Virus record (IMG/VR): IMGVR_UViG_3300027672_001796
DNA from: a virus
Taxonomy: Duplodnaviria > Caudoviricetes
Strand: one strand, 5' to 3'
DNA length: 64,000 nt
Below the pieces are notes generated by a model. The model was not told where the DNA came from. It ran no database searches and saw only the letters and a program-made list of their open reading frames with translations. Position 1 is the first letter of the stretch. Every line of letters begins with the position of its first letter. Positions 21,701 through 43,185 of the stretch are shown piece after piece. The translations under genes and the position numbers were made by a program.

Positions 21701-22160
21701 TTCTTCAAACAATGCATTAAACTTAGGATCAAGTGGACTTAAATATGCAAATGTTTACGCAACTACATTCCAAGGTAATGCAACTTCGGCGCAGTATGCG
21801 GATTTGGCTGAGAAATACGAAAGTGATGCAGAACTAGAAGCAGGCACAGTTGTTATGTTTGGTGGTGATAAAGAAGTTACAGCATGTGATAGTGAAAACT
21901 GTCATGCAGTAGCAGGTGTTATCAGTACTGATCCAGCTTATATGATGAACGCAGGAGCAGAAGGTCAATTTGTAGCATTAACAGGAAGAGTACCTACTAA
22001 GGTTACTGGTCCAGTTGCTAAAGGTGACTTAATGGTTTCCGCAGGTAACGGTATGGCTAAGGCTAATAACGATGCACAGGCAGGAAGAATGATTGGTAAA
22101 GCAGTTGGTTCTTCAGAAGGCGGAGAAGCTGTTATAGAAGTACTTGTTAACTTGATGTAA
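18759..22160 (+). CDS. fibre protein 2 with Mtd-N-like N-terminal domain
   Basis: N-terminal IQWRRGTTTQHSSFTGLAGEITVDTD, seven NLY/NEY repeat units, and the same C-terminal YADLAE domain as fibre 1; late promoter at 18674-18681. Confidence 0.85.
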   Translation: MATAIQWRRGTTTQHSSFTGLAGEITVDTDLNTVIVHDGSTAGGHRIAKYTEVTSAAAGDISSVVAGAGLTGGATTGDATINVIAGGGITVSADAVSLNASSGTFTTGVQTFLAGGTLAGHIIPSADVTYDLGSSSKQWRDVYVGPGSLYINGQQVLQDNSGTIQISADANQNVGIVTSGSGDVELNASGTGVINIQSAITVDAGQTLTGTGGLTMASNINLNSNSVNNLPAPGHAGDATNKTYVDGATYLTGGTGITNSSGTFAIDATVITTTGTQTISGNKTFSGTTTVSGTLNSSGAQLNIADNLITLNSDATGTPSEDVGLIVERGDSTNVQFKWIEAADEWSFTNDGSAYQGLVGHADFSAVTSGDGSLSYNSSTGAYTYTGPTAANVRAHLSAGTGMSFSGGAFATTITQYTDALAKASITVNDAGGDGSLAISNGVITYTGPSAAEAEAQINAHLSGGTGITYTDGAISVDATVVSTSGTQTVAGAKTFSDNMIISGNLTVNGTQTIVNTETLTIDDNMIVLNNNEAGTPSEDSGIEIERGTSTNVKLQWKEASDRWEMFDGSSTYPLARTTADLTESGNLYYTDARANARVAAATGANLDLSSKDTGDLSESGNLYYTDARADARIAAADTGDLSEGSNEYFTTARARASISEGSTELAYNSTTGVLTFTQGSTSGVSEGSNLYYTDARADARIANASTSNLSEGTNLYHTTERVQDIAGAMFTANTESGITVTYDDADGTIDLTTSIAGFSTSNLSEGSNLYHTTARARASINGGTGITYNASTGAISLTDTGYVTGVTAGTGLSGGGTSGTVTLNVSGITVAELDGGAVQISSESFADNNTTLMTSAAIQDKIEAYGYSTTTGDITGVTAGAGLTGGATSGSADLAIGAGTGITVNANDIAVTLTPFSTSNLSEGTNLYYTSARADARVSAVVTNAFVDALNVDADTLDDLTSSQFLRSDANDSHSGTITPSSNNALNLGSSGLKYANVYATTFQGNATSAQYADLAEKYESDAELEAGTVVMFGGDKEVTACDSENCHAVAGVISTDPAYMMNAGAEGQFVALTGRVPTKVTGPVAKGDLMVSAGNGMAKANNDAQAGRMIGKAVGSSEGGEAVIEVLVNLM

Positions 22161-22175
22161 GAGTTTACAAACAAT

Positions 22176-22206
22176 AAAAAAGGGAGTTTTTTAACTCCCT
22201 TTTTTT
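22176..22206. terminator. bidirectional intrinsic terminator
   Basis: A-run, AGGGAGTT-TTTT-AACTCCCT, T-run, between convergent genes. Confidence 0.9.
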
Positions 22207-22210
22207 GTGA

Positions 22211-22345
22211 TTAAAGCTTCTGACTTTGATTCATGACATGCCAGATATTTCCTGACTTCATGTATTTGTCAAATTCTTTAGAAAGATTGGTAACCGATGT
22301 TCCGAACTTGGATAACATGGCTACTATTCCTGTTGGATTCGCCAT
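22211..22345 (-). CDS. 44-aa microprotein (not in ORF track)
   Basis: MANPTGIVAMLSKFGTSVTNLSKEFDKYMKSGNIWHVMNQSQKL*; SD AGGAGA 5 nt upstream; ends at the bidirectional terminator. Confidence 0.65.
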   Translation of the reverse strand: MANPTGIVAMLSKFGTSVTNLSKEFDKYMKSGNIWHVMNQSQKL

Positions 22346-22412
22346 ACTTTTCTCCTAAAATGTGATAACAAACTTTAACTTACTTGTCGTAACTTCATCC
22401 TATAGTAGGAAC

Positions 22413-22452
22413 TGTTACAATCAATCTACAAGTATGTTACAATTGTGTTACA
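22413..22452. promoter_or_regulatory. 11-bp-periodic direct-repeat array, candidate OmpR/PhoB-family operator
   Basis: TGTTACA at 22413, 22435 and 22446, plus degenerate ATCTACA at 22424; a further TGTTACA at 22511. Confidence 0.5.
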
Positions 22453-22535
22453 GAATGTATTTATACAAACGAGTATTTTTACCAGGAAATATGTGATATT
22501 GCATAACAGTTGTTACATAGAAACTAAACCCAAAC

Positions 22536-22543
22536 GATAAATA
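22536..22543 (+). promoter_or_regulatory. late promoter of the curli-like operon
   Basis: GATAAATA upstream of 22606. Confidence 0.65.
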
Positions 22544-22605
22544 GTAACGAGTAGACAGTAACACACACACTTAAAGTAGCAACCCTTAAAAGGTGTGTAT
22601 ATAAT

Positions 22606-22902
22606 ATGGAAGAAATATTTGGATTGATCGCTGAAGTAGGAGCCCCCATCGCCGGAAGTCTAGTAATGGGATTCTTTATCTTTATGGTAATAAAACAAAT
22701 TCTCGAGGGTGTTGTAGACCAGGTCAAAACTTTGACTATGTTTTGCACATCACTAGAAGCGAGAGCAAGTACTATGAGTAACGAAATGTTAAAAATAGAC
22801 TTGCTAGTTAGCAGTGCCTTAGACCTCAGACCTGACATAGATCGAGTTTCGAGAGCAGATAATTTTGTCGAAGATGGCAAAGTGGATGCTAGGAGAGACT
22901 AA
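22606..22902 (+). CDS. small single-pass membrane protein with coiled coil (paralog 1)
   Basis: N-terminal TM segment (GAPIAGSLVMGFFIFMVI) then an amphipathic helix; TAATG-coupled to the next gene. Confidence 0.7.
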   Translation: MEEIFGLIAEVGAPIAGSLVMGFFIFMVIKQILEGVVDQVKTLTMFCTSLEARASTMSNEMLKIDLLVSSALDLRPDIDRVSRADNFVEDGKVDARRD

Positions 22903-23201
22903 TGGATATTGCACAGGCGATTAATGACTTTGGATTTCCAATCGTGTTATGCGTTGGACTCGGTTACTTTATATATTATATATGGTGGTTTATTGGAGAA
23001 AAGATAGATCCCGCTCTTGGCGACATGCATATAGCACTAATCAGAGTAATAGATAAAATGCGTAGATTAGACCAAGATTTAATTAGGCTACAACAGAAAG
23101 TTGATGTTGTGTTAGAATACAGAGCTAGACAACAAGTGCTAGACAATGCAGAACAAGAAACTGCATTAAAAACATTAAAACAAAAGCAAACAGGAAAGTA
23201 A
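22902..23201 (+). CDS. small single-pass membrane protein with coiled coil (paralog 2, YvrJ-like GFPI motif)
   Basis: INDFGFPIVLCVGLGYFIYYIWW then a coiled coil; same layout as the preceding gene. Confidence 0.7.
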   Translation: MDIAQAINDFGFPIVLCVGLGYFIYYIWWFIGEKIDPALGDMHIALIRVIDKMRRLDQDLIRLQQKVDVVLEYRARQQVLDNAEQETALKTLKQKQTGK

Positions 23202-23202
23202 A

Positions 23203-23718
23203 ATGAAAATTACAGGTACACACTTAGGTATGTTGGTTATGGTCGGATATTTTATAATGTCTTTGGCTAATAGTGACCTTTATGCCGATGAACTAAAGTT
23301 TAAGTTCAAGTCTCCGTCATTTTCTGGTAACGGGACAGGAGCACATTATTTAACAATTGAGAACCAGGAGAAGTCACGAAAAGATAAGATTAAAGAAGAC
23401 ATAGAATCTGCGTTAAAACGAGCAGAACGTGACAATGATAATTCGACAATTAATAAATTTATTAGAAATTTGGAGAGTAGAATTTATTCACAAATTTCTA
23501 AAGGATTAGTCGACAGCATGTTTTGTGATCCAGCAGTAGTTATTGCATGTACAAATTCAGATTCAGGTAGTTTTGAAATTGAAGGAAATACTGTTACATA
23601 CATTAAAACAGTTAATGAAGATGGGCTATCTATTATTAGAATGACTATTGTTGACCCTGACGGAACAATAACAACTATTGAGATTCCAATTGGAATCGGC
23701 AACATTGGCGGCGGTTAA
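23203..23718 (+). CDS. csgF: curli assembly component CsgF-like
   Basis: Signal peptide, mature ELKFKFKSPSFSG, FIRNLESRIYSQIS; immediately upstream of csgG. Confidence 0.85.
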   Translation: MKITGTHLGMLVMVGYFIMSLANSDLYADELKFKFKSPSFSGNGTGAHYLTIENQEKSRKDKIKEDIESALKRAERDNDNSTINKFIRNLESRIYSQISKGLVDSMFCDPAVVIACTNSDSGSFEIEGNTVTYIKTVNEDGLSIIRMTIVDPDGTITTIEIPIGIGNIGGG

Positions 23719-24728
23719 TGAAACTGTCTAATTACATACTGTTCTTTGTCGGCGCAATGTACTTAACTGGGTGTGCTAGTATATCTATACCCGGTGATAC
23801 AGCATGTAATACGGACTTTCTCGAATGCGTAGAAGAGCCGAAGCAAGTAGAATTACCCACATATCGAAAATTACGATATTTACCACCTAGCGAAACAATG
23901 CCAGTGGTAGCTGTTTATCAGTTTACTGACCAAACAGGACAAAGAAAAAGTCAAGATGGTGTCGCTAGTTTTAGTACAGCGGTCACACAGGATCCGAAGA
24001 GCATATTGATTGACGCCTTGAAGGCGGCAGGTGCTCACGAAAACCCAAAAGGAACATGGTTCCGGGTAGTTGAACGGGGTCTTGGCTTAGATAACTTAGT
24101 GAGGGAAAGGCAGATAGTTCGTAGTACACGCGAACAATATCAGACTGAAGAAAAACCTCAACAAGCAGTACAGCCATTGTTATTTGCTGGTATGATACTC
24201 GAAGGAGGTGTTGTAGGTTATGACACTAATGTAGAGACTGGCGGTAATGGTGCAAGGTACTTAGGTATTGGTACTACAAACCAATATAGAAGAGATAGTG
24301 TTACTATATCACTTAGAGCAGTAAGTACGCTCACCGGTGAAGTAATACTGAATGTACAGACATACAAAACTATCCTTAGTACAGGAATGGCAGGAGACGT
24401 ATTCAAATTTTTAGACATGGATACACGATTGCTTGAATTGGAAAGTGGCATGACACAGAACGAGAGCGTAACTTATGCAGTCCGGTCGGCGATTGAAGCC
24501 GCAGTATTGGCATTGATACAACAAGGTGATGAAAGAGGATATTGGAAAATTGTGTATCCGGAGAATTGGCAAGAAGAAGTAGATCAGCAAGAACGAGCTT
24601 ACTGGATGAAAGTCAATAATCAAGAAATTTTGGATACAAATGTAGACGAGAAGCCTACGTCATCACAGAATACTTTTTGGAAAAAAATATTACTAAAAAG
24701 TGAACCCATTAATGGAGAAGAAAAATGA
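23718..24728 (+). CDS. csgG: curli secretion channel CsgG lipoprotein
   Basis: Lipobox LTGC; VAVYQFTDQTGQRK, FSTAVTQ, WFRVVER...LDNLVRERQIVR, LEGGVVGYD, GARYLGIG, YRRDSVTISLRAVSTLTGEV. Confidence 0.95.
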   Translation: MKLSNYILFFVGAMYLTGCASISIPGDTACNTDFLECVEEPKQVELPTYRKLRYLPPSETMPVVAVYQFTDQTGQRKSQDGVASFSTAVTQDPKSILIDALKAAGAHENPKGTWFRVVERGLGLDNLVRERQIVRSTREQYQTEEKPQQAVQPLLFAGMILEGGVVGYDTNVETGGNGARYLGIGTTNQYRRDSVTISLRAVSTLTGEVILNVQTYKTILSTGMAGDVFKFLDMDTRLLELESGMTQNESVTYAVRSAIEAAVLALIQQGDERGYWKIVYPENWQEEVDQQERAYWMKVNNQEILDTNVDEKPTSSQNTFWKKILLKSEPINGEEK

Positions 24729-25555
24729 AGACAAACGTAATAAAGAAATTTACACTACAAGTCTTCGCTATAGTAAGTGTAATAATAGGAAGTCAGGCTC
24801 TAGGTGCAACGGATAACGAAGTACTACTAGACCAAGAAGGTGACAACTTAATATTAACAATATTACAAGCTGGTAACAGTAACAGAGTTTCTGGAGTGGC
24901 CTCAGGGTCAGGAGATTTAGTTGTAACTGGTAACAGTTTGATAATTGATATCATACAAGACGGTAACACAAATAAGTTTTTTGGAGACTTAATATTTGAT
25001 GGATCCGGAAGTTCAGTAATGGACTTTTATCAATTAGGTGATAGTAACGTCTGGGATTTACAGATCGGTGCTAACTCTAATAGTGCAGATAATACAGACA
25101 TGCTAGTAGACATTCAGGGCGACGGCAACACATTTGATGTTGGCATAGCTCACAGTGCCGCGGCGGAAAGCACTAACTTTGATTTAGATATACTTGGTTC
25201 TAGGAACAATTTTACTGCAAGTTTCAACAATACTACAGCTTGGGCATCAGCATCAGGCAATAACGCTGTTGGCGGAATTAAAAGTACTGGAACTGGCACA
25301 TCTGCTTTAGCAGGTATTACAATTGATACTAGTAACGTTGTATGGAATATGGAAATTATAGGAGACGACAACAAATTTGCTACTAAACAAAGTGGTAACG
25401 GTGGTCATTCCTTAACAGTAGTCTTAGACGGCAGTGATGGTGATTTTCAATTCATACAGGACATGACAGCAACATGTAGTCCAACGTGTGAAGGTATAAT
25501 TAACATAAATCTAAATAGCGAAAATGCATCAGTTCTTATTAAACAGACTGATTAA
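24725..25555 (+). CDS. curlin-repeat protein 1 (CsgA/CsgB-like)
   Basis: Signal peptide; repeated Q-x-G-x-x-N beta-arc units (ILQAGNSNRV, IIQDGNTNKF, FYQLGDSNVW, DIQGDGNTF). Confidence 0.75.
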   Translation: MKTNVIKKFTLQVFAIVSVIIGSQALGATDNEVLLDQEGDNLILTILQAGNSNRVSGVASGSGDLVVTGNSLIIDIIQDGNTNKFFGDLIFDGSGSSVMDFYQLGDSNVWDLQIGANSNSADNTDMLVDIQGDGNTFDVGIAHSAAAESTNFDLDILGSRNNFTASFNNTTAWASASGNNAVGGIKSTGTGTSALAGITIDTSNVVWNMEIIGDDNKFATKQSGNGGHSLTVVLDGSDGDFQFIQDMTATCSPTCEGIININLNSENASVLIKQTD

Positions 25556-26696
25556 CATAACAGCAGTATTAGTACTGTTGCTTACACCAAATCTGAGTGC
25601 CGCTGAGAGCATCGGCGGCATTATTGAACAAAGTGGAGCAACTGGAAGTATTGTAAGGTTGTCAGGCGAAGAACTGGCGGCTAATATTTTAGCCAATATT
25701 GTAAGTTATGATGAAGTAGAAACAACAAATGGGAGACTAAAAATTGAGTTTCTCGACAAAACCCAGGTTAGTCTAACAGAACACACTTACATGGAAATAG
25801 ACGAATATGTATTCGACCCAGATCCAAGTAAAAGCAAGATGGCATTAAATTTTGTACAAGGAACAGCTAGGTTTGCCACGGGCAGTTTAGGTCTCGTAGC
25901 AAAAGAAAATATAACAATCCTGACCCCTACCGCAAGTATAGGGATTAGAGGAACCGATTTTACTACCACAGTCGATGAACTGGGTAGGAGTCTAGTGATA
26001 TTATTACCGGACGAAGACTGTACTAATACAGTAGCATTAGAAGAAGGGTGTGCTCCAAGTGGTAGCATAACGGTAACAAATCAAGGCGGCACAGTAATAT
26101 TAGATGAAGCCTACCAGGCAGTAATGGTAAGCACATTTGAAACAAGCCCTACACAGCCTGTTGTGTTGGTTGATTTAGATTTAAATATGATAGATAATAT
26201 GTTTATTGTAGCAGAACCAAAACAGATTACAGAAGCAAAAGAAGAACAAGTACAAGAATTAAAAGGCGACAACGGATTATTAGACTTTGATGGCTTAGAT
26301 GCAAATGCAATTGAGCAAGATGTTTTAGCAGATACAACAGAAGATTTAGACTACACGGAATTGGATATAGATTTATTAAATGTAGACTTCCTAGTAGACT
26401 TATTAGACATTGTAGAAAAAACTACTAGTGGATTAGATGAAAAAGGCGGAGACTCAGGCAGTGGCGATAATAAATTAATAGGTGCTGTATACGGAACCAA
26501 TCCTGGAAATCAATTTAATATTATTCCAGACTTAGATGGCAAAGTATTTTTTCTCAGGCAAGTAAGCAATAAAATTAGTATTAAATTACGAAAAGGTTCT
26601 GTCGCACAGCTAGATATAAAAGACGGAGATTTAGGAGACACTATTATATGTTTAAGTAGTTGTGAAAACATATTAATAAGTATAACACAAGAATGA
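25524..26696 (+). CDS. secreted FecR-domain protein with acidic linker and curlin-like C-terminal tail
   Basis: Cleavable signal peptide; DEVETTNGRLKIEFLDKTQVSL, TPTASIGIRGTDF (FecR domain); ends IICLSSCENILISITQE. Confidence 0.8.
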   Translation: MHQFLLNRLINITAVLVLLLTPNLSAAESIGGIIEQSGATGSIVRLSGEELAANILANIVSYDEVETTNGRLKIEFLDKTQVSLTEHTYMEIDEYVFDPDPSKSKMALNFVQGTARFATGSLGLVAKENITILTPTASIGIRGTDFTTTVDELGRSLVILLPDEDCTNTVALEEGCAPSGSITVTNQGGTVILDEAYQAVMVSTFETSPTQPVVLVDLDLNMIDNMFIVAEPKQITEAKEEQVQELKGDNGLLDFDGLDANAIEQDVLADTTEDLDYTELDIDLLNVDFLVDLLDIVEKTTSGLDEKGGDSGSGDNKLIGAVYGTNPGNQFNIIPDLDGKVFFLRQVSNKISIKLRKGSVAQLDIKDGDLGDTIICLSSCENILISITQE

Positions 26697-27634
26697 ATAT
26701 AGAAAAAAAATTAAATGACATGAAGCCAAAAGATACTCCTCTGTTAGTATTAGGATATATCTTATTGGGTATGATGCTATTATTACCAGCAACAGCAAAA
26801 GCAGACAATGAAGTGGTGCTAGATCAGGAAGGTGATAATGTGGTTGTAGATATAATGCAAGCCGGCGCTATTAATAAAATAGATATAGTACTAGGATTGA
26901 ATAATAATACTAACAATACACTTAAAATAGGCCAAGGACACTCCGAGGGCGCCGAAAGTAACAACGTGTTTTTTAGTGTTGATGGCACCCACAACACTAT
27001 GCAAATAGAACAGCATGGCAGTAATAACGAAGTTGGCTGGACTAATGCCTGGGGCACTGGTATTGGGTTTGGCGGCGACTTAGACGGAAATAGTAATCAG
27101 ATATACTTCCATCAAAATTGTACTCGTGGCGCAAGTTGTGGCAAATCAGATATAGGATTTCATATCAAAGGAAATTCTAATACAGTTCGATATGGTCAAG
27201 GAGTTTGGTTTGGTTCTGGCGGCAGTATATCGAGTACCACATTTTACGATGATGGCGACGAGGGCGGAAACCATACAGCAACGTTAGACATTCACGGTAA
27301 CAATAATACTCTTGTTGGAATGCAAAGAAACGGTAGTCTTGATACTTATGATGGTCATACTGCAAATTTATACTTGTATGCAGATGACAACACACTTTAT
27401 GTCAATCAACAAACAGATGGAGCAAAGACATTAAATTATTCCTCTTACGTTGATGGTACCGTTGGTAGTATAACTCAACACAGTAATGGTGCTCACACAG
27501 CCACAATAGTGTTGAACGGAACACAACCTAGTAATCTGACGCTATTACAAAGCTCGAATTCAGCAAAGTCATACTCACTTACTCAGACGTGCCACACAGT
27601 TGGCGGCTGTTCTATAAGTGTAACCCAAGACTAA
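26693..27634 (+). CDS. curlin-repeat protein 2 (CsgA/CsgB-like)
   Basis: Signal peptide ending AKA; IMQAGAINKI, IEQHGSNNEV, HIKGNSNTV, DIHGNNNTL repeats; mature N-terminus nearly identical to curlin 1. Confidence 0.75.
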   Translation: MNIEKKLNDMKPKDTPLLVLGYILLGMMLLLPATAKADNEVVLDQEGDNVVVDIMQAGAINKIDIVLGLNNNTNNTLKIGQGHSEGAESNNVFFSVDGTHNTMQIEQHGSNNEVGWTNAWGTGIGFGGDLDGNSNQIYFHQNCTRGASCGKSDIGFHIKGNSNTVRYGQGVWFGSGGSISSTTFYDDGDEGGNHTATLDIHGNNNTLVGMQRNGSLDTYDGHTANLYLYADDNTLYVNQQTDGAKTLNYSSYVDGTVGSITQHSNGAHTATIVLNGTQPSNLTLLQSSNSAKSYSLTQTCHTVGGCSISVTQD

Positions 27635-27640
27635 TAAAGG

Positions 27641-27669
27641 TTGACAAGTCGTTAAATAATTGCTATAAT
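27641..27669 (+). promoter_or_regulatory. sigma70-type promoter
   Basis: TTGACA-17 nt-TATAAT with extended TG; ATG at 27677 lies 7 nt downstream. Confidence 0.85.
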
Positions 27670-27676
27670 TAACGCT

Positions 27677-27877
27677 ATGAGACACATGATCAAGTGGTTG
27701 AAGATATCAGCTGGTATAAACATATACCTTAGCTTCATACTAACATTAGTATTAGTAGCACTTATGGTGGATATCGGTTTAGATAGTTATTGGCATGGCG
27801 CAGACTTCAAAAACAGTATTATAGAAGAACTGCACAAAGCACAGAATAATCAACTAGATGAAAACCACACAGGCTAA
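27677..27877 (+). CDS. small membrane protein
   Basis: 66 aa with one TM segment (INIYLSFILTLVLVALMV). Confidence 0.55.
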   Translation: MRHMIKWLKISAGINIYLSFILTLVLVALMVDIGLDSYWHGADFKNSIIEELHKAQNNQLDENHTG

Positions 27878-28196
27878 ACTCGCCACTGCGATTTCTAAAT
27901 ATAAGAAATCTACACAGTTATTACTCACGATTGTAGCAATTCCACATTTAGTTATAATCTCTTTGATGTTCCCTATGCTAACAGTAACCATTATGGCAAC
28001 ATTTATGCTGACTGGATTAATGTATGCTTGGTGTGAACTGATATACCAAATAGAAAATTCCCAAAGAAGTCAATTAATGTTCCTCATACAAACAACCACA
28101 AACGAACACACTAGACAAATACTGCGTATGGAACTTTGGGAAATTGAAAAACACAACGGACTTTCAGGCACGTTTGACCCATACCACATCATTTAA
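27858..28196 (+). CDS. membrane protein, two TM segments
   Basis: 112 aa with a hydrophobic hairpin at aa 21-60. Confidence 0.55.
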   Translation: MKTTQAKLATAISKYKKSTQLLLTIVAIPHLVIISLMFPMLTVTIMATFMLTGLMYAWCELIYQIENSQRSQLMFLIQTTTNEHTRQILRMELWEIEKHNGLSGTFDPYHII

Positions 28197-28258
28197 TTAG
28201 ATAAATACTATATGTAATAATAGCAGATGGCTTTATTACCTTATATAAGGAGACGGAT

Positions 28259-28537
28259 ATGAATAATTTAGTATCTTTTTTCGGTTTAATTCTTTTATCA
28301 AGCATCGTAGGATGTGCCTCAGTTAGTGGCGCCTGGAATGCTGGTACAGAGATTGTCACAGGAACAGTTGACTCTGTTGTGGGCGGAGCCGCCACAATGG
28401 CAGTAGCGATTACTGATGATGTTCGAAACATTGCAGACGTAACTATTGACACAGCACAAGGTGTTGTTAAAACAGTTGCAGAAAATGTTGATAAACAAAC
28501 TGATGAATTACAAAAAGACAAAGAGCCGGGAAAGTAG
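28259..28537 (+). CDS. small lipoprotein (entericidin-like amphipathic), short form
   Basis: Lipobox IVG-C at aa 19; late promoter at 28200-28207; SD AAGGAG; ends in G-GGA-AAG-TAG. Confidence 0.8.
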   Translation: MNNLVSFFGLILLSSIVGCASVSGAWNAGTEIVTGTVDSVVGGAATMAVAITDDVRNIADVTIDTAQGVVKTVAENVDKQTDELQKDKEPGK

Positions 28538-28662
28538 GTAACTTTTCTCTTTTCAGAAAAGAAAAGGAAAAGCAACTCACAGCACAGGAATTAGTCTTAC
28601 TTTTCAAACAGAACCAAGAGAAGTTAGAAAAATACTGTACAACTAACCCAAAGGAATGTTAG
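28528..28662 (+). CDS. -1 frameshift extension of the lipoprotein (long form about 134 aa)
   Basis: GKVGNFSLFRKEKEKQLTAQELVLLFKQNQEKLEKYCTTNPKEC*; no ATG/GTG/TTG in frame; slippery GGGAAAG at 28528-28534 and a hairpin at 28542-28572. Confidence 0.65.
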   Translation, partial: GKVGNFSLFRKEKEKQLTAQELVLLFKQNQEKLEKYCTTNPKEC

Positions 28663-28707
28663 CAATAATCGATAGATAGACGATTAGATGCGATAAATGT
28701 TAGCACT

Positions 28708-28732
28708 AAAGCACTCGCAAGAGTGCTTTTTT
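28708..28732 (+). terminator. intrinsic terminator downstream of the frameshift extension
   Basis: AAAGCACTC-GCAA-GAGTGCTTT plus T run. Confidence 0.9.
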
Positions 28733-28840
28733 GTTTTTTAAACGATAAATACTTGTACATAATAACACAGGGTTTACTTATTACACAACACACCCACACA
28801 TAACTGTCCCACTAAAACACAGTACCCTAAAGGAGAAAAA

Positions 28841-30292
28841 ATGAAGATAAGAATCTTATCAGCATTAGCCTTGATTGGGTTAATGACGACAACTGGTACA
28901 GTACAGGCCCAGGCCACCGGCACATGTACAGCAGGTACCCAGTATTGTGAAGCAAGTACATCGGATACTACAAGTACAACCACAACTACTGCGAATAATA
29001 CGAATACTTCGACGAACACGAATACTTCGACGAACACGAATACCAACGCGAATACGAACACGAATACCAACGCGAACACAAACACGAATACTTCGACGAA
29101 TACGAATAATTCGACGAATACGAATAATTCGACAAATACAAACACCAACGCGAATACGAACACGAACACCAACGCGAATACGAACACCAACACGAACACC
29201 AACGCGAATACGAACACGAACACGAATACCAATACCAACAATAATACCAACAATAATACCAACGCGAATACGAACACGAATAATTCGACCAATACTAACA
29301 ATTCGACCAACAGCAACACCAATAATAATACGTCGACAAATAATAACACCAACGCGAACACGAACACGAATAATAATACATCGACTAGTACCAACAACAA
29401 TGTGTCGAGTGGTGGAACAAATAACACCAATGCTAATACGAATAATAATACCAACACCAACAATAGCACTTCGAACAATACCAACACCAATAATAACACT
29501 AGTGATAGCACGGTAAACAGTACTTCGAATAACACTAATACGAACAATAGTAATATTGATCAGAACGTGAATTCAAATAGTACTAGTAACAATACCAACA
29601 CCAATAATAACAATAACAACTCGACCAGTGATAATACTAATAACAATAATAATACATCGACTAGTGACAGTAATGTAACAACTGACAACACGTCAGAAAG
29701 TAACAATACCAACACCAATAATAATACTAATAAAAACGAAAACATCAACAAGACTGACCAGACTATTAAGCAAGAGATAACAACTAAGGCTCCACCTGCT
29801 AGTGCTATTGCACCAAGCATTGGTTCTAGTTACTCACAAGACTTATGTACAACTGGTATATCAGGTGCTTTCCAAGGACAAGTATTTGGACTAAGTGGCG
29901 GTAAATCAGTTAGAGATATGAACTGTGAACGTATAAAGTTAAGTAAAACTATATACGATATGGGCATGAAGGTTGCGGCAGTTAGTTTAATGTGTCAAGA
30001 CGAACGTGTATTTACAGCGATGGAAATGGCTGGAACACCTTGTCCTTACATGGGAGCAATTGGCGATGCGGCTACTAAGCAATGGGCAGAGAATAGCGAT
30101 GAACGAGCAGATGCTAAACGTGGATGGTTCGGCAGAAAGAAAAACACAAGGTCATCGGCTAAAGTAGACTCGAATGTACTTAACACAGGCGAAGACTTTG
30201 ATAAGTTCATGAAAAAATGTCGTAAGAAAACAGGCAAAGGCAAGAAGAAAAGTTCGGGCCAATGTGAGGCAGAATGGGAATCAAACGCTTAA
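28841..30292 (+). CDS. secreted Asn/Thr-repeat protein with Cys-containing C-terminal domain
   Basis: Signal peptide (..VQAQA), TCTAGTQYC, about 245 aa of (NT)n, then PPASAIAPSIG...DLC...MNCERIKLS...LMCQDERVF...GTPCP and a basic tail; late promoter at 28744-28751; SD AAGGAG. Confidence 0.85.
   Translation: MKIRILSALALIGLMTTTGTVQAQATGTCTAGTQYCEASTSDTTSTTTTTANNTNTSTNTNTSTNTNTNANTNTNTNANTNTNTSTNTNNSTNTNNSTNTNTNANTNTNTNANTNTNTNTNANTNTNTNTNTNNNTNNNTNANTNTNNSTNTNNSTNSNTNNNTSTNNNTNANTNTNNNTSTSTNNNVSSGGTNNTNANTNNNTNTNNSTSNNTNTNNNTSDSTVNSTSNNTNTNNSNIDQNVNSNSTSNNTNTNNNNNNSTSDNTNNNNNTSTSDSNVTTDNTSESNNTNTNNNTNKNENINKTDQTIKQEITTKAPPASAIAPSIGSSYSQDLCTTGISGAFQGQVFGLSGGKSVRDMNCERIKLSKTIYDMGMKVAAVSLMCQDERVFTAMEMAGTPCPYMGAIGDAATKQWAENSDERADAKRGWFGRKKNTRSSAKVDSNVLNTGEDFDKFMKKCRKKTGKGKKKSSGQCEAEWESNA
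28994..29733 (+). repeat. low-complexity Asn/Thr coding repeat
   Basis: Units such as ACGAATACTTCGACGAAC and ACCAACGCGAATACGAACACGAAT encode NTNTST / NTNTNA / NTNNST. Confidence 0.95.
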
Positions 30293-33200
30293 TAACAGCA
30301 CTTGCTGTAGGCGTACTAACTTTATTTCCTACAGTATCTGAAGCCGACGGAGGATACACGACTGATAATACTGGCTATCCTTTAGTAAATCTTGTTGGCG
30401 ACTATTATCAGGGTGGCAACAGCAACGGTTCAATACTATGTCAAGGCGCCGCAGATGAAACAGGTTGTAATATAGCATTTGCTATTGGCTTTGATTTTGA
30501 CTGGCATGGCGAAACATTCACTCACGGCTTAATGAGTACTAATGGTTGTTTAAAACTGTTGAAGTCAAGTGCGTTTAGCAGTAGTGATTACTGTAGTTAT
30601 GATGTAAAGCATCTAAGTGCCTCTTCAGGAATGAACGATACACTATTCCCTTTCTGGAGTGACTTAGACTTAGGCACAATATACGATACCCAAGCACCGG
30701 TTAATAGCACAATGCTCTTTAATAACTCGGGCAACTTTGCTACATTTGGCTGGTACTATATGCGTGAGTATGGCGTAACAGCAGATACGGATAAATTTGA
30801 TCCAATGTATCCAAACGCACATAATACGTTTGAGGTGGTGCTTTTAAATCAAAACTGTACAGATTGCCCAGGCAACACAGATGACGAAAACGATGACTAT
30901 GCTTACATATACGGTAACTTAGAAATTAGTCACAGTAATGTTTTAATTGGAGAAAAGAAAAACTCGAACTCCTTTACTGAAGCATACTTTTTTAGTGATA
31001 ATAGTTGGTGTGCAGATTGTATAAACCCAAATGACGGCACTCAAGGACGACACCTTTTTATATGGGACGACTATGACCAAGGAAACGTAGAAGGCGGAGC
31101 AATATACAAAGACGGTAATGGCGTACAGCCTGCAGAGTGTGAGAATAATCCTCTTTTTAGCACATCATGTAGTTTATATAGTATAAGTTTCTTAGCACAA
31201 CAATGCCTCTCCGATAGTTCATATAGTCCAGACTGTGACGGATACTTTGGTGACTTAGAAGACACATATTTAGAAGAAAATGCATGTTACGAAGATCCGA
31301 GCTTACCACAATGTGCCGGATTAGGTATTTTTGAAACTTTCAGTGATTATGATTATGCTACAGGAGAAGCGTATGACTTTAATTATAACCCACAAGAATT
31401 TGGCAACATGGACGGCTATGATCCTAACACAGGATTAGTTACGCAAAGTGATGGTTCGACAATTAGTATAGATGGCTCTTATTATTCCGATGGATATGAT
31501 CCTAATGTGGATTATGATAGCATGAATAATACGTCCGGCGATAACTTTTATTTGAATGAAGATGGCATATATGTTCCTGACCAATACGACCCAATGCAAG
31601 ATGACGATATAAAGTTTGAATATTTAAGTGAAGAACAACAGATGTTAGTTGGTCAAGGTTTAAGTATGCAGGAAGCCACACTAATTACAATGGGCCAAGG
31701 TGACCTACTAGCATTAGGACATGATCCTAACATACAATTTCAAGGTAACAACCCAGGCGACTTAGTTTATGAAATTATAGGACAAGACGATTACAACTAT
31801 GAAATGCATGACGAGTTTATGTTGAATGAAGCAGAAGAAAACGGCTGGGTAGATGGATATACAAGCAGTGATATATGGAGTACAGAAGAATACCAGCAAC
31901 AAGAAGATATGTGGGAAGCAGAGTTTGAAGCAGAGTTTGGACCAGACGCATACAGCTGGACATCAAAAGATTGGTATGAATACGATCTAAAAGAATTTGG
32001 ACAAGATCAAGTAGATGAGTGGTACGGCAAAGAAGTAGTATTTGACGAGAGTGGAGAGATGGATTGGGAATCATTTGACATGCTAATGGATGAAGAATAC
32101 GCTTATGAAGTGTATGAAGTTTATTCAGACGAAGAAGAACTGATGTACGAAGAAATGATAGCAAAGGATTTTGAAAAATGTCCTACATGTGAGCTTGAAG
32201 AATTTTTTGACTTATCGGAAGATGAACTAATAGCATTTGAAAACGAAAGAATGTATGAGGAAGAGGCATACTTTGACCTTGATCCAGAAGAGGCATTCGA
32301 AGCCTTTATCAAAGAAGAAGGATTGGAGGACATATTAAGTGCAGACGAATTAGACGACTTTAGAAATGAAGTGTATGCTGACATAGAACTGCATGAAGAA
32401 CAGCATGAAGAACAATTTCAAGAAGGCCCAGGCGATTATCAAGTAGCAGAATCTACTACACCCAAGGCACAAGAACAACGACAAGAACAACGACAAGAAC
32501 AACAAAAAACAGACACCCAGTTTCTTAGTAATGCTGGTTCAGGTGTAATGAGTGTTAGTGTAGCACAATTTAATTTAGACTTTAACAGTAGCGACGGTGG
32601 TAGTACACAGGAAGTTGTTGAAGAACTTATTGCTGATATTATTGATGACGGCTCAGGTAGTATTGATGACGGCTCAGGTAGTTTCGACGATGGATCAGGC
32701 AGTAGCAATAGCAGTGGTAATGACGGCAGTGGTAGTTATGCTCAAAGCAATGACGGTTCAAGCCAGTCACAAAATTCAAATGGTAGCCAGGACAGCGGAC
32801 AAGGAATGTTAGCACAAGAAGATACAAGTGGTGATAGTTTCTTCCAAGAACAAATAGAGCAAAGCATGGGACAAGAAAGTTTCAGTGCTACAACAAGTGT
32901 AACAGAATCATTTGATACTGGTGCATTTACAGTTGCTGAAAGTTCAGCTGATGCCCAAACAGTACAACAAGAAGAAACACTACAGTTTGTAGAAAACTTC
33001 GATGACGGTACAAGTGGCATAAGTGGAGCAGACATACAGTTTGAAGATGAACTAACCACAGCATTAAGTAGTGGCACAGGCTTAACAGAATTCCTAAGCC
33101 AAGCACCGGCAGATTACAGTAGGTTTGAAGTTGAAGCACCTACGTTCCAAGAGCAACGACAATCAGACGCAGTAGAAAGTTTAGCAGATACAATGGGAGC

Positions 33201-33498
33201 AACAGTTGCCGCCGCAAACTTACAAGCAGAATTAGACACAATACAAGCAGGTAATGAGGACTCCAATGAATATGGCGACCAAACTATTGCTGTTGCTTAT
33301 ATTGGTTATACAGCAGGCTTTAGTGAGTACACTAGCCAAATACAATTAGCAGACCAACAAGCATGGTATGGTAGTTCGCAAGTGTACAAAGGACAAAAGA
33401 ATGTTGATAACGTACAGAGTTTTTACATGATGGCTGGAAATACTCAAGAGAAACTAAAAGAAATGATATACAGCCAATATAAATTAAAAGAAAAATAG
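30274..33498 (+). CDS. large secreted protein: NIDO-like domain, Cys mini-repeats, very acidic and Ser/Gly/Gln-rich stalk
   Basis: Signal peptide; GFDFDWHGETFTHGLMSTNG and LFPFWSDLD (NIDO-like); CENNPLFSTSC, CLSDSSYSPDC, CYEDPSLPQC; DNA tandem repeats at 32470-32505 (QEQR) and 32641-32703 (IDDGSGS). Confidence 0.7.
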   Translation: MGIKRLITALAVGVLTLFPTVSEADGGYTTDNTGYPLVNLVGDYYQGGNSNGSILCQGAADETGCNIAFAIGFDFDWHGETFTHGLMSTNGCLKLLKSSAFSSSDYCSYDVKHLSASSGMNDTLFPFWSDLDLGTIYDTQAPVNSTMLFNNSGNFATFGWYYMREYGVTADTDKFDPMYPNAHNTFEVVLLNQNCTDCPGNTDDENDDYAYIYGNLEISHSNVLIGEKKNSNSFTEAYFFSDNSWCADCINPNDGTQGRHLFIWDDYDQGNVEGGAIYKDGNGVQPAECENNPLFSTSCSLYSISFLAQQCLSDSSYSPDCDGYFGDLEDTYLEENACYEDPSLPQCAGLGIFETFSDYDYATGEAYDFNYNPQEFGNMDGYDPNTGLVTQSDGSTISIDGSYYSDGYDPNVDYDSMNNTSGDNFYLNEDGIYVPDQYDPMQDDDIKFEYLSEEQQMLVGQGLSMQEATLITMGQGDLLALGHDPNIQFQGNNPGDLVYEIIGQDDYNYEMHDEFMLNEAEENGWVDGYTSSDIWSTEEYQQQEDMWEAEFEAEFGPDAYSWTSKDWYEYDLKEFGQDQVDEWYGKEVVFDESGEMDWESFDMLMDEEYAYEVYEVYSDEEELMYEEMIAKDFEKCPTCELEEFFDLSEDELIAFENERMYEEEAYFDLDPEEAFEAFIKEEGLEDILSADELDDFRNEVYADIELHEEQHEEQFQEGPGDYQVAESTTPKAQEQRQEQRQEQQKTDTQFLSNAGSGVMSVSVAQFNLDFNSSDGGSTQEVVEELIADIIDDGSGSIDDGSGSFDDGSGSSNSSGNDGSGSYAQSNDGSSQSQNSNGSQDSGQGMLAQEDTSGDSFFQEQIEQSMGQESFSATTSVTESFDTGAFTVAESSADAQTVQQEETLQFVENFDDGTSGISGADIQFEDELTTALSSGTGLTEFLSQAPADYSRFEVEAPTFQEQRQSDAVESLADTMGATVAAANLQAELDTIQAGNEDSNEYGDQTIAVAYIGYTAGFSEYTSQIQLADQQAWYGSSQVYKGQKNVDNVQSFYMMAGNTQEKLKEMIYSQYKLKEK

Positions 33499-33508
33499 GA
33501 GAAATAAA

Positions 33509-33961
33509 ATGGCAGAAGTAGAATATGCAGGTGTAAAAATGAGTGGTTCAAAACTTATGATTATGCTTCCTTTACTTGGTACTATAATCGGTGGACTATG
33601 GGGAGGCTTTGAACTCTACAGTAGACTACTTGAAGCAGAAGAAACATTAGCAAACTTACAACCAGAAGCAATTCAGACTGAACTAGTAAGACTAACTGAA
33701 CTTACTGAAGTTATTAAAACGGATTTGAGAGCAGATATTAATTCAGCTAGAGACGAAGTTAAAGTAGCAATGGACTTATCAAGGGAAACTGAAAAAACAT
33801 CAGCTGACACACAAAGAGAAATTAGAAATGATGTGTATGCTATGGAACGTGATATGAATACACGTTTTAAAGAGATGGATGCAGAAACTAGAGAGTTAAG
33901 AAAAGAGCTGGAAGACAAGATAATGACTATACTTGAAAATCCACTCAACGACACTGAATAA
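33509..33961 (+). CDS. single-pass membrane protein with long coiled coil
   Basis: TM segment LMIMLPLLGTIIGGLWGGF followed by about 110 aa of heptad-patterned helix; SD AGGAG. Confidence 0.75.
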   Translation: MAEVEYAGVKMSGSKLMIMLPLLGTIIGGLWGGFELYSRLLEAEETLANLQPEAIQTELVRLTELTEVIKTDLRADINSARDEVKVAMDLSRETEKTSADTQREIRNDVYAMERDMNTRFKEMDAETRELRKELEDKIMTILENPLNDTE

Positions 33962-33976
33962 CAGCTAAATACTGTT

Positions 33977-36073
33977 ATGAAATTTTTATATAGTGGTTAT
34001 GCAGTATTGATATCTATTGTGTTGCTACTTGCATTGCGAGTAGCAGATCCAACGGCACTACAGAGTGTTAGAGGGCAAACATTTGATGCATATCAACAGT
34101 TAGATGAAATTAAGCAAAGCCAGGATGTTGTACTATTAAACATCGGGGAAAAAAGTTTAGCAGTTAATGGTCAATACCCTTGGCCCAGACAATACTATGC
34201 ACAACTGGTGATAGATGTTGCAGGAGCCGGAGGCGGTGTGCTAGGCTGGACTATTATGTTTCCTGAAGCAGATAGATTCGCCGGAGATGAAATATTTGCT
34301 AATTACTTGATGGAAAATAAAGTTAATGTGCAAGGAGCAAGACGTAATCCTATTAACTTTAATGTATTAAGTCAAGCAACTAGTACAAGAGGCATTAAAA
34401 CATCAGGCCCACATATAGGAACAGGCACAATCGGTCCTGTGCCAGCAAAAAATTATTTACTAAAGTGGCCCAACTTAGTTACAAACATTCCGCTACTAGA
34501 AGCAGTAGCAAACGGCAAAGGCGTAACAGCGTCAGCGCCACAGCCAGATAATCAAACACGAACATACCCATTAGCAATTACAGTTGGCGATAGACTGTAT
34601 CCTAGTTTTGCTATTGAAATGCTAAGGGTAAGTAAAGGTCAAAAAAGTTATATAGTTAAAACTAGCGAATTAGGAATACAAGAAGTTACAGTTAAAGGAT
34701 ACGATCCAATTGTAACACAGTCAGACGGCACAGCATACATTCGCTTTAATAATACATTCGAGGAAATTGAATACTTAGGAGCCGAAACTCTGACCCATCT
34801 TGCAGGCAAAATGGTTATAGTAGGTGTTACAGCAGAAGGTATTGCAAATCCTGTGCCTACACCAAGAGGCAACTTGTATCCACAGCAAATACACGCTCAT
34901 ATGCTACAAAACTTTATAGATAGCAGTAACATTACCAGGAACGAGTTAAGTGCTGTGTACGAGCTTCTGTGTGCGTTACTGGGCATGATATTAATAGGTC
35001 TAGCAATATATAAATCGCACATTTGGGTAGGTTTAGTGACCACAGTTACTATTATAGGCGGAATTGTATATTATAGTATATATTCTTATACTGCAAACTT
35101 AGTATTATTTGATGCTACTTTTCCAGCAATAGCAAGTTTCTTAATATTTACACAGGCAAGTTTTAATAACTTCTGGATACAATTTAAACTAAGAGCTGAG
35201 ATACAAAAACAATTTGCCGGTTACGCCTCTCCTACAGTGGTTCGTATGTTGCAAGAAAACCCAGAACTAATTAAGCAGGGTATGAAGAAGGAAGTAAGTA
35301 TATGCTTCTCAGATTTACGTGGATTTACCCCATTAGGCGAGAGCTTTGGCGATGATGTTAAAGGGTTAACAGAAATAATGAACGGGTATATGGATGCAAT
35401 TACACAACCTATACTAGATGCAAACGGCATGGTGATTAAATATATCGGTGATGCCAGTATGCATATACATAATGCTCCAATGGATGATCCAGACCACCCT
35501 AAGAGTGCGGTGGAAACAGGCATATTAATGCTCAGGGCAGTAGAGAAATTCAATGATAAAATTGTTAAAGAAGGCAGACCACCCATTGGTATGGGTGCTG
35601 GTATTAATACTGGGCTCGGTTATATTGGGGAAATGGGCTCCACTGCCAGGCACAGTTACGACATACTCGGAGATGCAGTTAGTACCGCGGCAAGAATAGA
35701 AAGCAAATGTAAAGAGTACGGATGTTTACTCCTTGTGGGCGGTGATACATATAAACATACTAAGAATAATTTCTTTTATTTAAAAGTAGATGACTTGCAA
35801 GTAAAAGGTAAAAGCGTTGGCATAGAAATATATACTGCATTAGATATTAAGCTAACTAAGTATGTTAAAGGCAAACAACTACATGCACAAATGCATGAAC
35901 ATTATCGCAATCAAGATTTTGATAAAGCAATTAAATTATGTAAGCAATTATCTAAAACGTTTGACGGCAAAATGAAAGGCTACTATACTATGTGGATTGA
36001 ACGCTGTGAATTTCAAAAGACACAAGACTTGCCTAAGGATTGGAACGGAATTATGATAGCCACAGGCAAATAA
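33977..36073 (+). CDS. CHASE2-domain class III adenylate cyclase
   Basis: N-terminal TM, CHASE2 motifs (YPWPRQYYAQL, IMFPEADRFAGD, YPSFAIEML, IVGVTAEG, PTPRG), three TMs, then FSDLRGFT, IKYIGDA, GAGINTG, YDILGDAVSTAARIES. Confidence 0.9.
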   Translation: MKFLYSGYAVLISIVLLLALRVADPTALQSVRGQTFDAYQQLDEIKQSQDVVLLNIGEKSLAVNGQYPWPRQYYAQLVIDVAGAGGGVLGWTIMFPEADRFAGDEIFANYLMENKVNVQGARRNPINFNVLSQATSTRGIKTSGPHIGTGTIGPVPAKNYLLKWPNLVTNIPLLEAVANGKGVTASAPQPDNQTRTYPLAITVGDRLYPSFAIEMLRVSKGQKSYIVKTSELGIQEVTVKGYDPIVTQSDGTAYIRFNNTFEEIEYLGAETLTHLAGKMVIVGVTAEGIANPVPTPRGNLYPQQIHAHMLQNFIDSSNITRNELSAVYELLCALLGMILIGLAIYKSHIWVGLVTTVTIIGGIVYYSIYSYTANLVLFDATFPAIASFLIFTQASFNNFWIQFKLRAEIQKQFAGYASPTVVRMLQENPELIKQGMKKEVSICFSDLRGFTPLGESFGDDVKGLTEIMNGYMDAITQPILDANGMVIKYIGDASMHIHNAPMDDPDHPKSAVETGILMLRAVEKFNDKIVKEGRPPIGMGAGINTGLGYIGEMGSTARHSYDILGDAVSTAARIESKCKEYGCLLLVGGDTYKHTKNNFFYLKVDDLQVKGKSVGIEIYTALDIKLTKYVKGKQLHAQMHEHYRNQDFDKAIKLCKQLSKTFDGKMKGYYTMWIERCEFQKTQDLPKDWNGIMIATGK

Positions 36074-39672: not shown

Positions 39673-39762
39673 GGAGAGTTGGCTGAGTGGTCGAAAGCGC
39701 CTCCCTGCTAAGGAGGTATATGGGTAACTGTATCGAGGGTTCGAATCCCTCACTCTCCGCCA
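39673..39762 (+). tRNA. tRNA-Ser(GCT)
   Basis: Acceptor GGAGAGT/ACTCTCC, anticodon arm CCTCC-CTGCTAA-GGAGG, long variable arm, GGTTCGAATCC, encoded CCA. Confidence 0.97.
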
Positions 39763-40833: not shown

Positions 40834-40908
40834 GAGTTAGTGGTCTAATGGTAAGATGCAGGTCTCCAAAACCTTGCGATTGGGGTTCGAATCCTTACTA
40901 GCTCGCCA
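40834..40908 (+). tRNA. tRNA-Trp(CCA)
   Basis: Acceptor GAGTTAG/CTAGCTC, anticodon loop CTCCAAA, GGTTCGAATCC, encoded CCA; several G-U pairs. Confidence 0.9.
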
Positions 40909-43109: not shown

Positions 43110-43185
43110 GGGGATGTAGCTCAGTTGGGAGAGCGGTTCCCTTGCACGGAACAGGTCGTAGGTTCGATCCCTATCATCTCCACCA
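43110..43185 (+). tRNA. tRNA-Ala(TGC)
   Basis: Acceptor GGGGATG/CATCTCC with G3-U70, anticodon arm GTTCC-CTTGCAC-GGAAC, GGTTCGATCC, encoded CCA. Confidence 0.97.

Follow-up and report, generated by a model that had tools for sequence, protein, structure and literature searches.

Curli-type genes are known both from Escherichia coli and Salmonella (csgBAC-csgDEFG) and from marine phages. The genes csgF and csgG were found in pelagimyophages by Zaragoza-Solas et al. in 2020 (PMC7029224), and Wittmers et al. (2022) described the full set, including FecR and adenylate cyclase genes, in podo- and myo-pelagiphages, in the order 'HK'-CsgF-CsgG-CsgA/B-FecR-(CsgA/B)-adenylate cyclase (HK, histidine kinase), together with ocean-wide counts and metatranscriptome evidence for this viral type VIII secretion system (T8SS) module (PMC9599517). 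The cultured hosts, SAR11 and OM43, are reported to have no curli genes of their own (PMC7029224, PMC9004378, PMC9599517). Here, we analyzed a related locus at positions 22606–36073 of a 64,000-nucleotide (nt) stretch of viral DNA, IMG/VR record IMGVR_UViG_3300027672_001796 (hereafter the window), in which curli-type genes share a 13.5 kb island with genes for a FecR-domain protein, a CHASE2 cyclase and other envelope proteins. A preliminary description of this DNA rightly stated that phage curli genes had already been reported, the full set with FecR and cyclase having been published in 2022 (PMC9599517). Beyond Wittmers et al., our literature search found no report linking CsgG, FecR and cyclase in phages, and none naming jumbo phages in this connection.

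FecR-domain proteins are also documented together with CHASE2 sensors in bacteria. A Burkholderia operon encodes a response regulator, a LysM-FecR protein and a CHASE2 histidine kinase (PMC5192318), and in Sinorhizobium meliloti, which has CHASE2 cyclases (CyaD1), the FecR-domain protein SMc02177 is a Clr target (PMC5498481).

Set against these systems, the 13.5 kb is likely, in our judgment, to be a mosaic situated in a late structural region. It would comprise a conserved core (22606–27634 together with the cyclase at 33977–36073) that corresponds to the known viral curli-type module, clade-specific small envelope genes and an independently mobile cassette. The module is split by a cassette that travels independently; we therefore read the island as a mosaic and not as one new system.

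The curli-type core and its carrier phage

Fourteen co-oriented open reading frames (ORFs) on the plus strand fill the island, and an N-terminal hydrophobic segment is present in all 14 products, with lipoboxes in CsgG (LTGC) and in a 92-amino-acid (aa) protein (IVGC). The preliminary description of a co-oriented run of envelope genes therefore holds, and the four families it had named, CsgF, CsgG, FecR and the CHASE2 class III cyclase, are all recognized by Pfam (Table 1). It had also seen the first seven genes as chained by TAATG/ATGA overlaps or a 1-nt gap. This is true of five of the six junctions (in order, a 1-nt overlap, a 1-nt gap, and overlaps of 1, 4, 32 and 4 nt), the exception being the 32-nt overlap between curlin 1 and FecR, which relatives keep.

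To place these genes among viruses, we collected 80 viral loci with CsgG, of which 56 extend at least 6 kb downstream and 69 at least 2.5 kb upstream. Downstream, FecR was found in all 56 loci, a curlin in 55 and the cyclase in 52; upstream, the two small membrane proteins that we call TMa and TMb were each found in 68 of the 69 loci, and CsgF in every one. The cyclase thus does not assort independently of csgG and belongs to the module, and CsgF, CsgG, two curlin-repeat proteins, FecR and the CHASE2 cyclase form one conserved phage linkage group, as had been proposed for this part of the island. The linkage is retained even in one clade in which TMa and TMb follow the cyclase and are encoded on the opposite strand. 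The distance from the FecR end to the cyclase start ranges from 0.3 to 5.5 kb across csgG loci, with changing content. One sub-clade has an extra ORF of 491–498 aa between FecR and curlin 2, a second variable junction in the module.

The cultured phages HTVC008M and Melnitz carry two small membrane proteins, CsgF, CsgG, curlin, FecR, curlin and cyclase in this order, and most of these genes are already annotated in GenBank. The window has the same eight gene families in the same order: the small upstream pair, with homologues in both phages; adjacent csgF and csgG followed by a curlin-repeat gene; FecR after the first curlin; the second curlin; and the cyclase. In HTVC008M and Melnitz the cyclase directly follows curlin 2, whereas in the window it is displaced by about 6.3 kb of other genes. 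Protein identities to HTVC008M and Melnitz range from 33 to 50% (48% and 44% for CsgG, 50% and 46% for TMa, and 33% and 50% for the cyclase, respectively), and each gene matches a PHROG family; megablast of the island against cultured phages returned nothing, and the relatives were found by protein searches. The window also shares with the pelagiphage module the absence of CsgE and a position at the edge of the structural genes. By gene content and order, then, the core is the viral T8SS module known from earlier work on SAR11 and OM43 phages.

We found no support for the name 'histidine kinase' under which the first two genes were published. TMa has an N-terminal membrane segment, a helical tail and a conserved DGKxDARRD at its end, and TMb is its distant paralogue. 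Searches of TMa against Pfam and NCBIfam returned no domain, and neither protein matched histidine kinase models there (HisKA/DHp H-box, HATPase_c), even at an E-value of 10. Histidine is absent from TMa and, judged by its conserved columns, the TMb family has no conserved H-box; neither protein (98–99 aa) shows a kinase domain by any of these tests.

In common with the curli of E. coli and Salmonella, the phage encodes a CsgG lipoprotein channel, CsgF and putative secreted subunits with QxGxxN rungs and a predicted beta-solenoid fold. The two curlin-like proteins contain at least five (curlin 1) and at least four (curlin 2) QxGxxN-type (GxxN) rungs, have in common a DNEVxLDQxGD rung immediately after the signal peptide, and end alike in a Cys pair and (I/V)xQxD (VTQD). 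The predicted model of curlin 1 is all-beta with 18 strands (pTM, the predicted template-modeling score, 0.74), and its best match among 48,161 representatives of the Protein Data Bank (PDB) was the Pontibacter CsgA (8c50_A, Z 16.7, 20% identity; VIA-align). On the other hand, the phage subunits differ from those of the bacteria in their length (276–313 aa), irregular rungs and C-terminal Cys pair; the constriction residues of CsgG are altered; and FecR, the cyclase and the two small membrane proteins are added. Unlike the bacterial systems, the phage set lacks CsgE, CsgC and CsgD, as the preliminary description had noted; searches of the island gave no match to any of them.

Which phage carries the module? 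The portal protein is closest to those of jumbo phages, namely the Pseudomonas phage PA5oct (52%), followed by Phosso, Atu_ph07 and Vibrio phage 2.275.O. Two records that contain this module as well, one of 340 kb (91% complete) and one of 110 kb (28% complete), have portals 77–81% identical to it; for a complete record of 149 kb, from the csgG clade closest to HTVC008M, the identity is only 34%. Because the portal is nearest to jumbo phages and a 340-kb record bears the module, the carrier is, on this sequence evidence, an uncultured marine jumbo myophage of roughly 340–390 kb and not a Kyanoviridae pelagimyophage. The published carriers, in contrast to this phage with its PA5oct/Atu_ph07-type portal, are 140–150 kb Kyanoviridae pelagimyophages or podophages.

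Marine metagenomes from at least nine studies contain the stretch in nearly identical form. Furthermore, we observed contigs from RNA libraries of three studies that match, with 0–1 mismatch, TMa–CsgF, CsgG, both curlins, the 112-aa gene and cassette genes 1 and 2. As for the pelagiphage module, for which ocean metatranscriptome expression has been reported, these pieces may reflect expression; because carry-over of DNA is possible, they are suggestive only. Complete phage-type modules also occur on contigs of metagenome-assembled genomes labeled 'Planctomycetaceae TMED10' (11 kb) and 'Pelagibacter TMED203' (19 kb), and FecR homologues of the phage clade on contigs of 179 kb and 287 kb labeled Hellea sp. 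and 'bacterium'. These contigs are probably phage genomes mis-binned as bacteria.

The FecR/CHASE2 pair and the proposed mechanism

Over 4,500 relatives of the FecR-domain protein were found in the protein collection. Its model has three parts: a FecR/PupR-type beta domain (residues 29–225), an acidic disordered linker (225–315) and a small C-terminal beta domain (331–389). The N-terminal domain has the PupR/FecR fold (PupR 6ovm_R, Z 14.7, root-mean-square deviation 2.7 over 135 residues; 4m0h, Z 13.6), which is that of the periplasmic C-terminal signaling domain of PupR, one of the FecR/PupR anti-sigma regulators of cell-surface signaling (6ovk/6ovm). In contrast to those regulators, the phage protein has neither a transmembrane helix nor a cytoplasmic anti-sigma domain and is predicted to be a soluble periplasmic protein with a cleavable signal peptide. 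It also differs from the Burkholderia LysM-FecR protein, having an acidic linker and an extra C-terminal beta domain in place of LysM.

The C-terminal domain has six strands in the model and no convincing structural match (Z about 3.3). A Foldseek match to the 'cell surface anchoring domain' of MpIBP (5ix9) was discarded as its identity, since it maps to residues 27–123 instead. An hxhxQ strand motif ends 72 of 74 FecR proteins, 70 of 111 curlins and 18 of 718 other ORFs. We do not claim the domain as a curlin repeat, because profile–profile comparison of the FecR and curlin families gave no homology (probability 9%) and Smith-Waterman alignment of their C-termini was only marginal (29 of 2000 shuffles reach the score); the terminal motif is all that the two have in common.

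Is the association of FecR with CHASE2 peculiar to phages? Among 78 bacterial loci found with the FecR profile, a CHASE2 protein lies within about 1 kb downstream of FecR in 35, and a cyclase catalytic domain was also detected in 31. These counts agree with the Burkholderia and Sinorhizobium reports (PMC5192318, PMC5498481) and support a pairing of FecR-domain proteins with CHASE2 sensors in bacteria, which the preliminary description had stated for CHASE2 class III cyclases of rhizobial cAMP signaling loci. Neither csgG nor csgF was present in any of the 78 loci. In the phage, too, the gene for a secreted FecR-domain protein precedes that for a membrane protein whose CHASE2 domain is periplasmic, and the two partners are strictly co-inherited; unlike the bacterial pair, the two phage genes are joined to a secretion channel and split by a curlin gene, which intervenes even in compact phage versions. 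In the window, the inserts of 6.3 kb separate them further, to 7.3 kb. By analogy, FecR and the cyclase are best read as a putative sensor pair of the bacterial type.

The cyclase has the predicted topology of a receptor: one membrane segment, the periplasmic CHASE2 domain, three membrane segments and a cytoplasmic catalytic domain. Its metal-binding aspartates D446 and D492, together with the substrate Lys K488 and the transition-state Arg R573, are invariant in 47 viral homologues, and the substrate Asp D562 is present. Many jumbo-clade relatives have, directly before the cyclase, a recurrent protein of 160–180 aa that has a hydrophobic segment at its N-terminus and a CxKIR-like C-terminus; the window has no such protein.

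These features suggest how the module might work. Late in infection, the Sec pathway would export the CsgG lipoprotein and CsgF, which would form an outer-membrane channel. The two curlin-repeat proteins would cross this channel and stack as a beta-solenoid fiber or layer on the infected cell. The FecR-domain protein would be the periplasmic partner of CHASE2, as in the bacterial FecR-then-CHASE2 pair, and would modulate cytoplasmic cyclic-nucleotide synthesis acting on host effectors. Candidate pay-offs for the phage are aggregation, exclusion of other phages and the timing of lysis. The earlier suggestion that cAMP tunes lysis timing or aggregation is speculative, as are the roles put forward in the published papers.

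Could the FecR-domain protein serve as a coupler, a physical link through which the cyclase would sense the state of the curli-type channel or fiber? The C-terminal signaling domain of PupR binds the periplasmic domain of an outer-membrane protein. The PupR-like domain of the phage protein might dock on CHASE2 or CsgG while its C-terminal end, formed by the acidic linker and the small beta domain with the terminal motif also seen in the curlins, engages the channel or the growing fiber, so that secretion or assembly would be turned into a cyclic-nucleotide signal. We put this forward tentatively, as a possibility held at low confidence.

Several observations weigh against the fiber-and-signal reading. 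The constriction loop of CsgG differs from that of E. coli: the aligned Phe, which we take to be F56 in E. coli numbering, is kept, and the neighboring Asn and Tyr are read as lost. The Curlin_rpt matches fall under the Pfam threshold (17.7 bits for curlin 1 against a cut-off of 20.7), generic beta-helices nearly tie with CsgA as matches to the curlin 1 model (Z 14.6–16.1 versus 16.7), and Foldseek of this model against the PDB gave no significant match. CsgE and CsgC were not found in five records of related phages, of which two are 91% complete or more. In the cyclase of this clade, Ser occupies the position at which class III enzymes usually carry the transition-state Asn, a substitution found here and in 24 of the 47 viral homologues that also sets the window apart from the published viral module. 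No cyclic-nucleotide-binding protein (PF00027, the cAMP receptor family) was found in two nearly complete related phage genomes, and therefore any read-out of the cyclic nucleotide must come from the host. None of the window-identical RNA-library contigs covers the cyclase, and RNA libraries can carry DNA. Finally, Melnitz-infected cells showed no clumping (Buchholz et al., PMC9004378).

Some of these observations speak for an alternative in which CsgG and CsgF form a gated outer-membrane channel, whether pinholin- or secretin-like or an uptake pore, that would time lysis or pass solutes, with the curlin-like proteins as its plugs or regulators instead of subunits that polymerize. The pore idea comes from Zaragoza-Solas et al. 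(2020, PMC7029224) and from Buchholz et al. (2022), who proposed a pinholin- or secretin-like role and supported it with structural arguments (PMC9004378). It would fit the altered constriction, the missing CsgE, the Melnitz cultures without clumping and the situation of the module in late regions. On the other hand, a pore alone does not explain why curlin-repeat proteins with signal peptides are conserved beside it in 55 of 56 loci, nor why the curlin 1 model is a solenoid most like CsgA. The presence of CsgF is likewise unexplained; to our knowledge, its only known job is the anchoring and nucleation of fibers. For these reasons we regard a pore without a fiber as unlikely.

The three-gene cassette and its independent distribution

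The preliminary description took the whole island to be one system. In such a system all 14 genes would cooperate, the cassette proteins at 28841–33961 would be further cargo or accessories of the channel, and the cyclase would read out their assembly. Several features speak for such integration: every product is envelope-directed, several sub-lineages of this lineage have the cassette in the interval from curlin 2 to the cyclase, and it is probably co-transcribed with the cyclase, as a late box precedes it at 28744 and no terminator intervenes before 33977. The distribution of the cassette among viruses argues otherwise.

Cassette gene 1 encodes a signal peptide, ~245 aa of Asn/Thr low complexity, a four-Cys domain that starts with APPASAIAP and a basic tail. 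The four-Cys domain is 67–83% identical across the diverse viral contigs aligned and matched nothing in Pfam and, by sequence, nothing in the PDB. Its relatives were found at 577 places in viral contigs, mostly without csgG. In the best 80 of these 577 places, whose neighborhoods we examined, the order gene 1, gene 2, gene 3 is kept, and csgG, FecR and the cyclase occur in only a few window-like loci. Only in close relatives of the window does the cassette lie between curlin 2 and the cyclase.

Both dissociations are also seen in cultured phages. The domain or the whole cassette occurs without a csgG match in Mosig, HTVC115P, HTVC023P, HTVC202P, HTVC033P, Baldr and two roseophages; in HTVC008M and Melnitz, csgG is present and the cassette is missing. 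Because the cassette occurs without csgG and csgG phages exist without the cassette, the proposal of a single system is refuted for the cassette by the criterion that the preliminary description itself had set, independent assortment from csgG. Furthermore, other relatives carry different cargo at the same junction, a terminator separates the curli operon from the cassette, and the cyclase retains its own late box regardless of what lies upstream. Cooperation of all 14 genes is, in view of these findings, quite improbable. The comparison indicates that the cassette is independently mobile and that it inserted here between curlin 2 and the cyclase, where the module is variable; our own guess is that it most likely represents a separate late envelope-remodeling module.

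Cassette gene 2, which in other phages always follows gene 1, encodes a putative NIDO-like domain at the N-terminus, followed by Cys repeats, an extended acidic stalk and, at the C-terminus, a conserved domain. NIDO (PF06119) matched below threshold in six of 15 homologues (best E 0.0025) and not in the window protein, and the N-terminal domain has no sequence match in the PDB. Cassette gene 3 accompanies genes 1 and 2 whether or not the locus has the cyclase, has a homologue in HTVC115P and showed no relationship to TMa or TMb in BLAST comparisons. That cassette gene 3 and the 92-aa lipoprotein act as spanins or in lysis was considered and left as unsupported speculation. The Asn/Thr region of cassette gene 1 (29105–29591) reaches a depth of more than 1000 in one RNA run, with contigs mostly 90–95% identical; this most likely represents low-complexity cross-mapping from many phages and is not a measure of expression.

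That some or all of these late, fiber-adjacent genes encode virion decorations or appendages and not host-envelope factors is very improbable: the island does sit between tail-fiber and tail-sheath/virion genes, under late-type promoters, and the HTVC115P cassette adjoins genes annotated 'putative structural protein', but Sec signal peptides, lipoboxes and a polytopic cyclase typify envelope proteins and not virions assembled in the cytoplasm, and CsgG belongs to an outer-membrane lipoprotein family.

Promoters, accessory genes and genomic setting

The canonical T4 late promoter, TATAAATA, is not enriched in the window (6 found, 8.2 expected) and was replaced in our analysis by GATAAATA, which is (17 found, 4.7 ± 2.3 expected; 0 of 100 shuffles reach 17). 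The latter motif occurs just upstream of the portal and fiber genes and, in the island, at 22536, 28200 and 28744. The evidence for the earlier placement of the island under late promoters is these boxes and not the canonical motif, and the island as a whole uses two promoter classes. An ATAAATA box lies within 45 nt of the TMa start in 22 of 55 distinct relatives. Similarly, 25 of 44 distinct relatives have an NTAAATA box no more than 45 nt from the cyclase start, most often in the form GATAAATA and 5–6 nt ahead of the ATG; because this box is kept whatever precedes it, the cyclase appears autonomous from the upstream genes. A CTAAATA 13 nt before the FecR start was considered as a partner of the cyclase box and rejected as chance, being kept in two of 53 cases.

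The second promoter class is represented by a sigma-70 consensus promoter ~7 nt before the ATG of the 66-aa gene, with TTGACA/TATAAT kept in 10 of 12 distinct relatives. This conservation points to early expression by the host polymerase. The 66-aa and 112-aa genes are probably accessory genes of the jumbo clade with early expression; the unit looks like an early, possibly leaderless one embedded between late operons, and perhaps has an immunity-type function. Next comes the 92-aa lipoprotein gene, an accessory often present in this clade in the interval from curlin 2 to the cyclase. Directly 3′ of its stop codon is a 12-bp hairpin, and ~160 nt without ORFs (28538–28700) precede the terminator at 28708–28740, which closes the lipoprotein unit and sets the cassette apart from the units upstream. 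One RNA-library contig, from a relative, covers 28210–28651. With its late-type boxes, sigma-70 promoter and internal terminator, the island comprises at least four transcription units of two promoter classes.

Table 1. Genes and signals of the island at 22606–36073 and the late-type box preceding it (positions in the window).
Feature	Position	Strand	Basis
Late-type box GATAAATA, 70 nt upstream of the first core-operon gene	22536..22543	+	Motif enriched
TMa, small bitopic membrane protein, 98 aa	22606..22902	+	phrog_18771, E 3e-23
TMb, small bitopic membrane protein, 99 aa, distant TMa paralogue	22902..23201	+	phrog_18771, E 8e-21
CsgF homologue, signal peptide	23203..23718	+	PF10614, E 3e-11, 43.9 bits vs 25.8-bit cut-off; phrog_35372, E 1e-41
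CsgG outer-membrane channel lipoprotein	23718..24728	+	PF03783, E 3e-48; E. coli CsgG 3x2r (PDB), E 5e-45
Curlin-like secreted beta-solenoid protein 1	24725..25555	+	Curlin_rpt E 0.0034, below threshold
Periplasmic FecR-domain protein	25524..26696	+	PF04773, E 1e-9
Curlin-like secreted protein 2	26693..27634	+	Curlin_rpt E 0.58; 'curlin associated repeat protein' in Melnitz
Sigma-70 consensus promoter before the 66-aa gene	27641..27669	+	TTGACA, 17 nt, TATAAT, with TG; 12/12 hexamer matches
66-aa and 112-aa small membrane proteins	27677..28196	+	Membrane segments; homologues in 13 and 11 related loci
Late box and 92-aa lipoprotein gene	28200..28537	+	Lipobox IVGC; homologues in 22 loci; late box conserved
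Intrinsic terminator	28708..28740	+	9-bp stem, 4 GC pairs, then T run
Late-type box GATAAATA before the cassette	28744..28751	+	Motif enriched
Cassette gene 1	28841..30292	+	phrog_20531, E 2e-16
Cassette gene 2, 1074-aa secreted acidic protein	30274..33498	+	Signal peptide; protein-atlas NIDO lead 0.91
Cassette gene 3, 150-aa bitopic membrane protein, coiled coil	33509..33961	+	Membrane segment at 16–34
Variant late box CTAAATA, 12 nt before the cyclase ATG	33965..33971	+	Motif scan
Receptor-type class III nucleotide cyclase	33977..36073	+	CHASE2 PF05226, E 5e-33; Guanylate_cyc PF00211, E 3e-15

Upstream of the island lie the portal gene and two large ORFs (13376–18640 and 18759–22160) that match tail-fiber PHROGs. 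The island had been said to follow the fiber genes directly. Fiber-type genes do precede it, but a terminator (22176–22205), a small divergent ORF and a spacer of ~260 nt intervene. This ORF, on the minus strand at ~22212–22345, is followed by intergenic GTTACA-type repeats with 11-nt spacing before the late box of the operon (region 22212–22563). Downstream of the island, on the opposite strand, are genes for a NUDIX hydrolase, the tail sheath and a virion protein. Elsewhere in the window, three plus-strand tRNA genes, Ser-GCT, Trp-CCA and Ala-TGC, lie at 39673–39762, 40834–40908 and 43110–43185, and 43945–45876 encodes a 643-aa protein with a radical SAM domain (E 8e-12), a weak B12-binding match and no PHROG match at E ≤ 1e-5.

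What this locus adds is modest: a jumbo phage as the carrier, a hot spot for insertions, a mosaic of promoters and the lack of support for the 'HK' label. The junction before the cyclase serves as a landing site for other envelope cassettes as well, and the cassette described here is a widespread, uncharacterized and unannotated module of marine phages, with relatives in cultured podophages and a myophage, that may repay future work more than the core does. Ocean viromes commonly contain the core module, which gives infected cells a predicted outer-membrane secretion channel, fiber subunits and a receptor cyclase. If the FecR-domain protein does act as a coupler, the phage would possess a second-messenger sensor coupled to secretion, a kind of sensor not described from bacterial curli systems.

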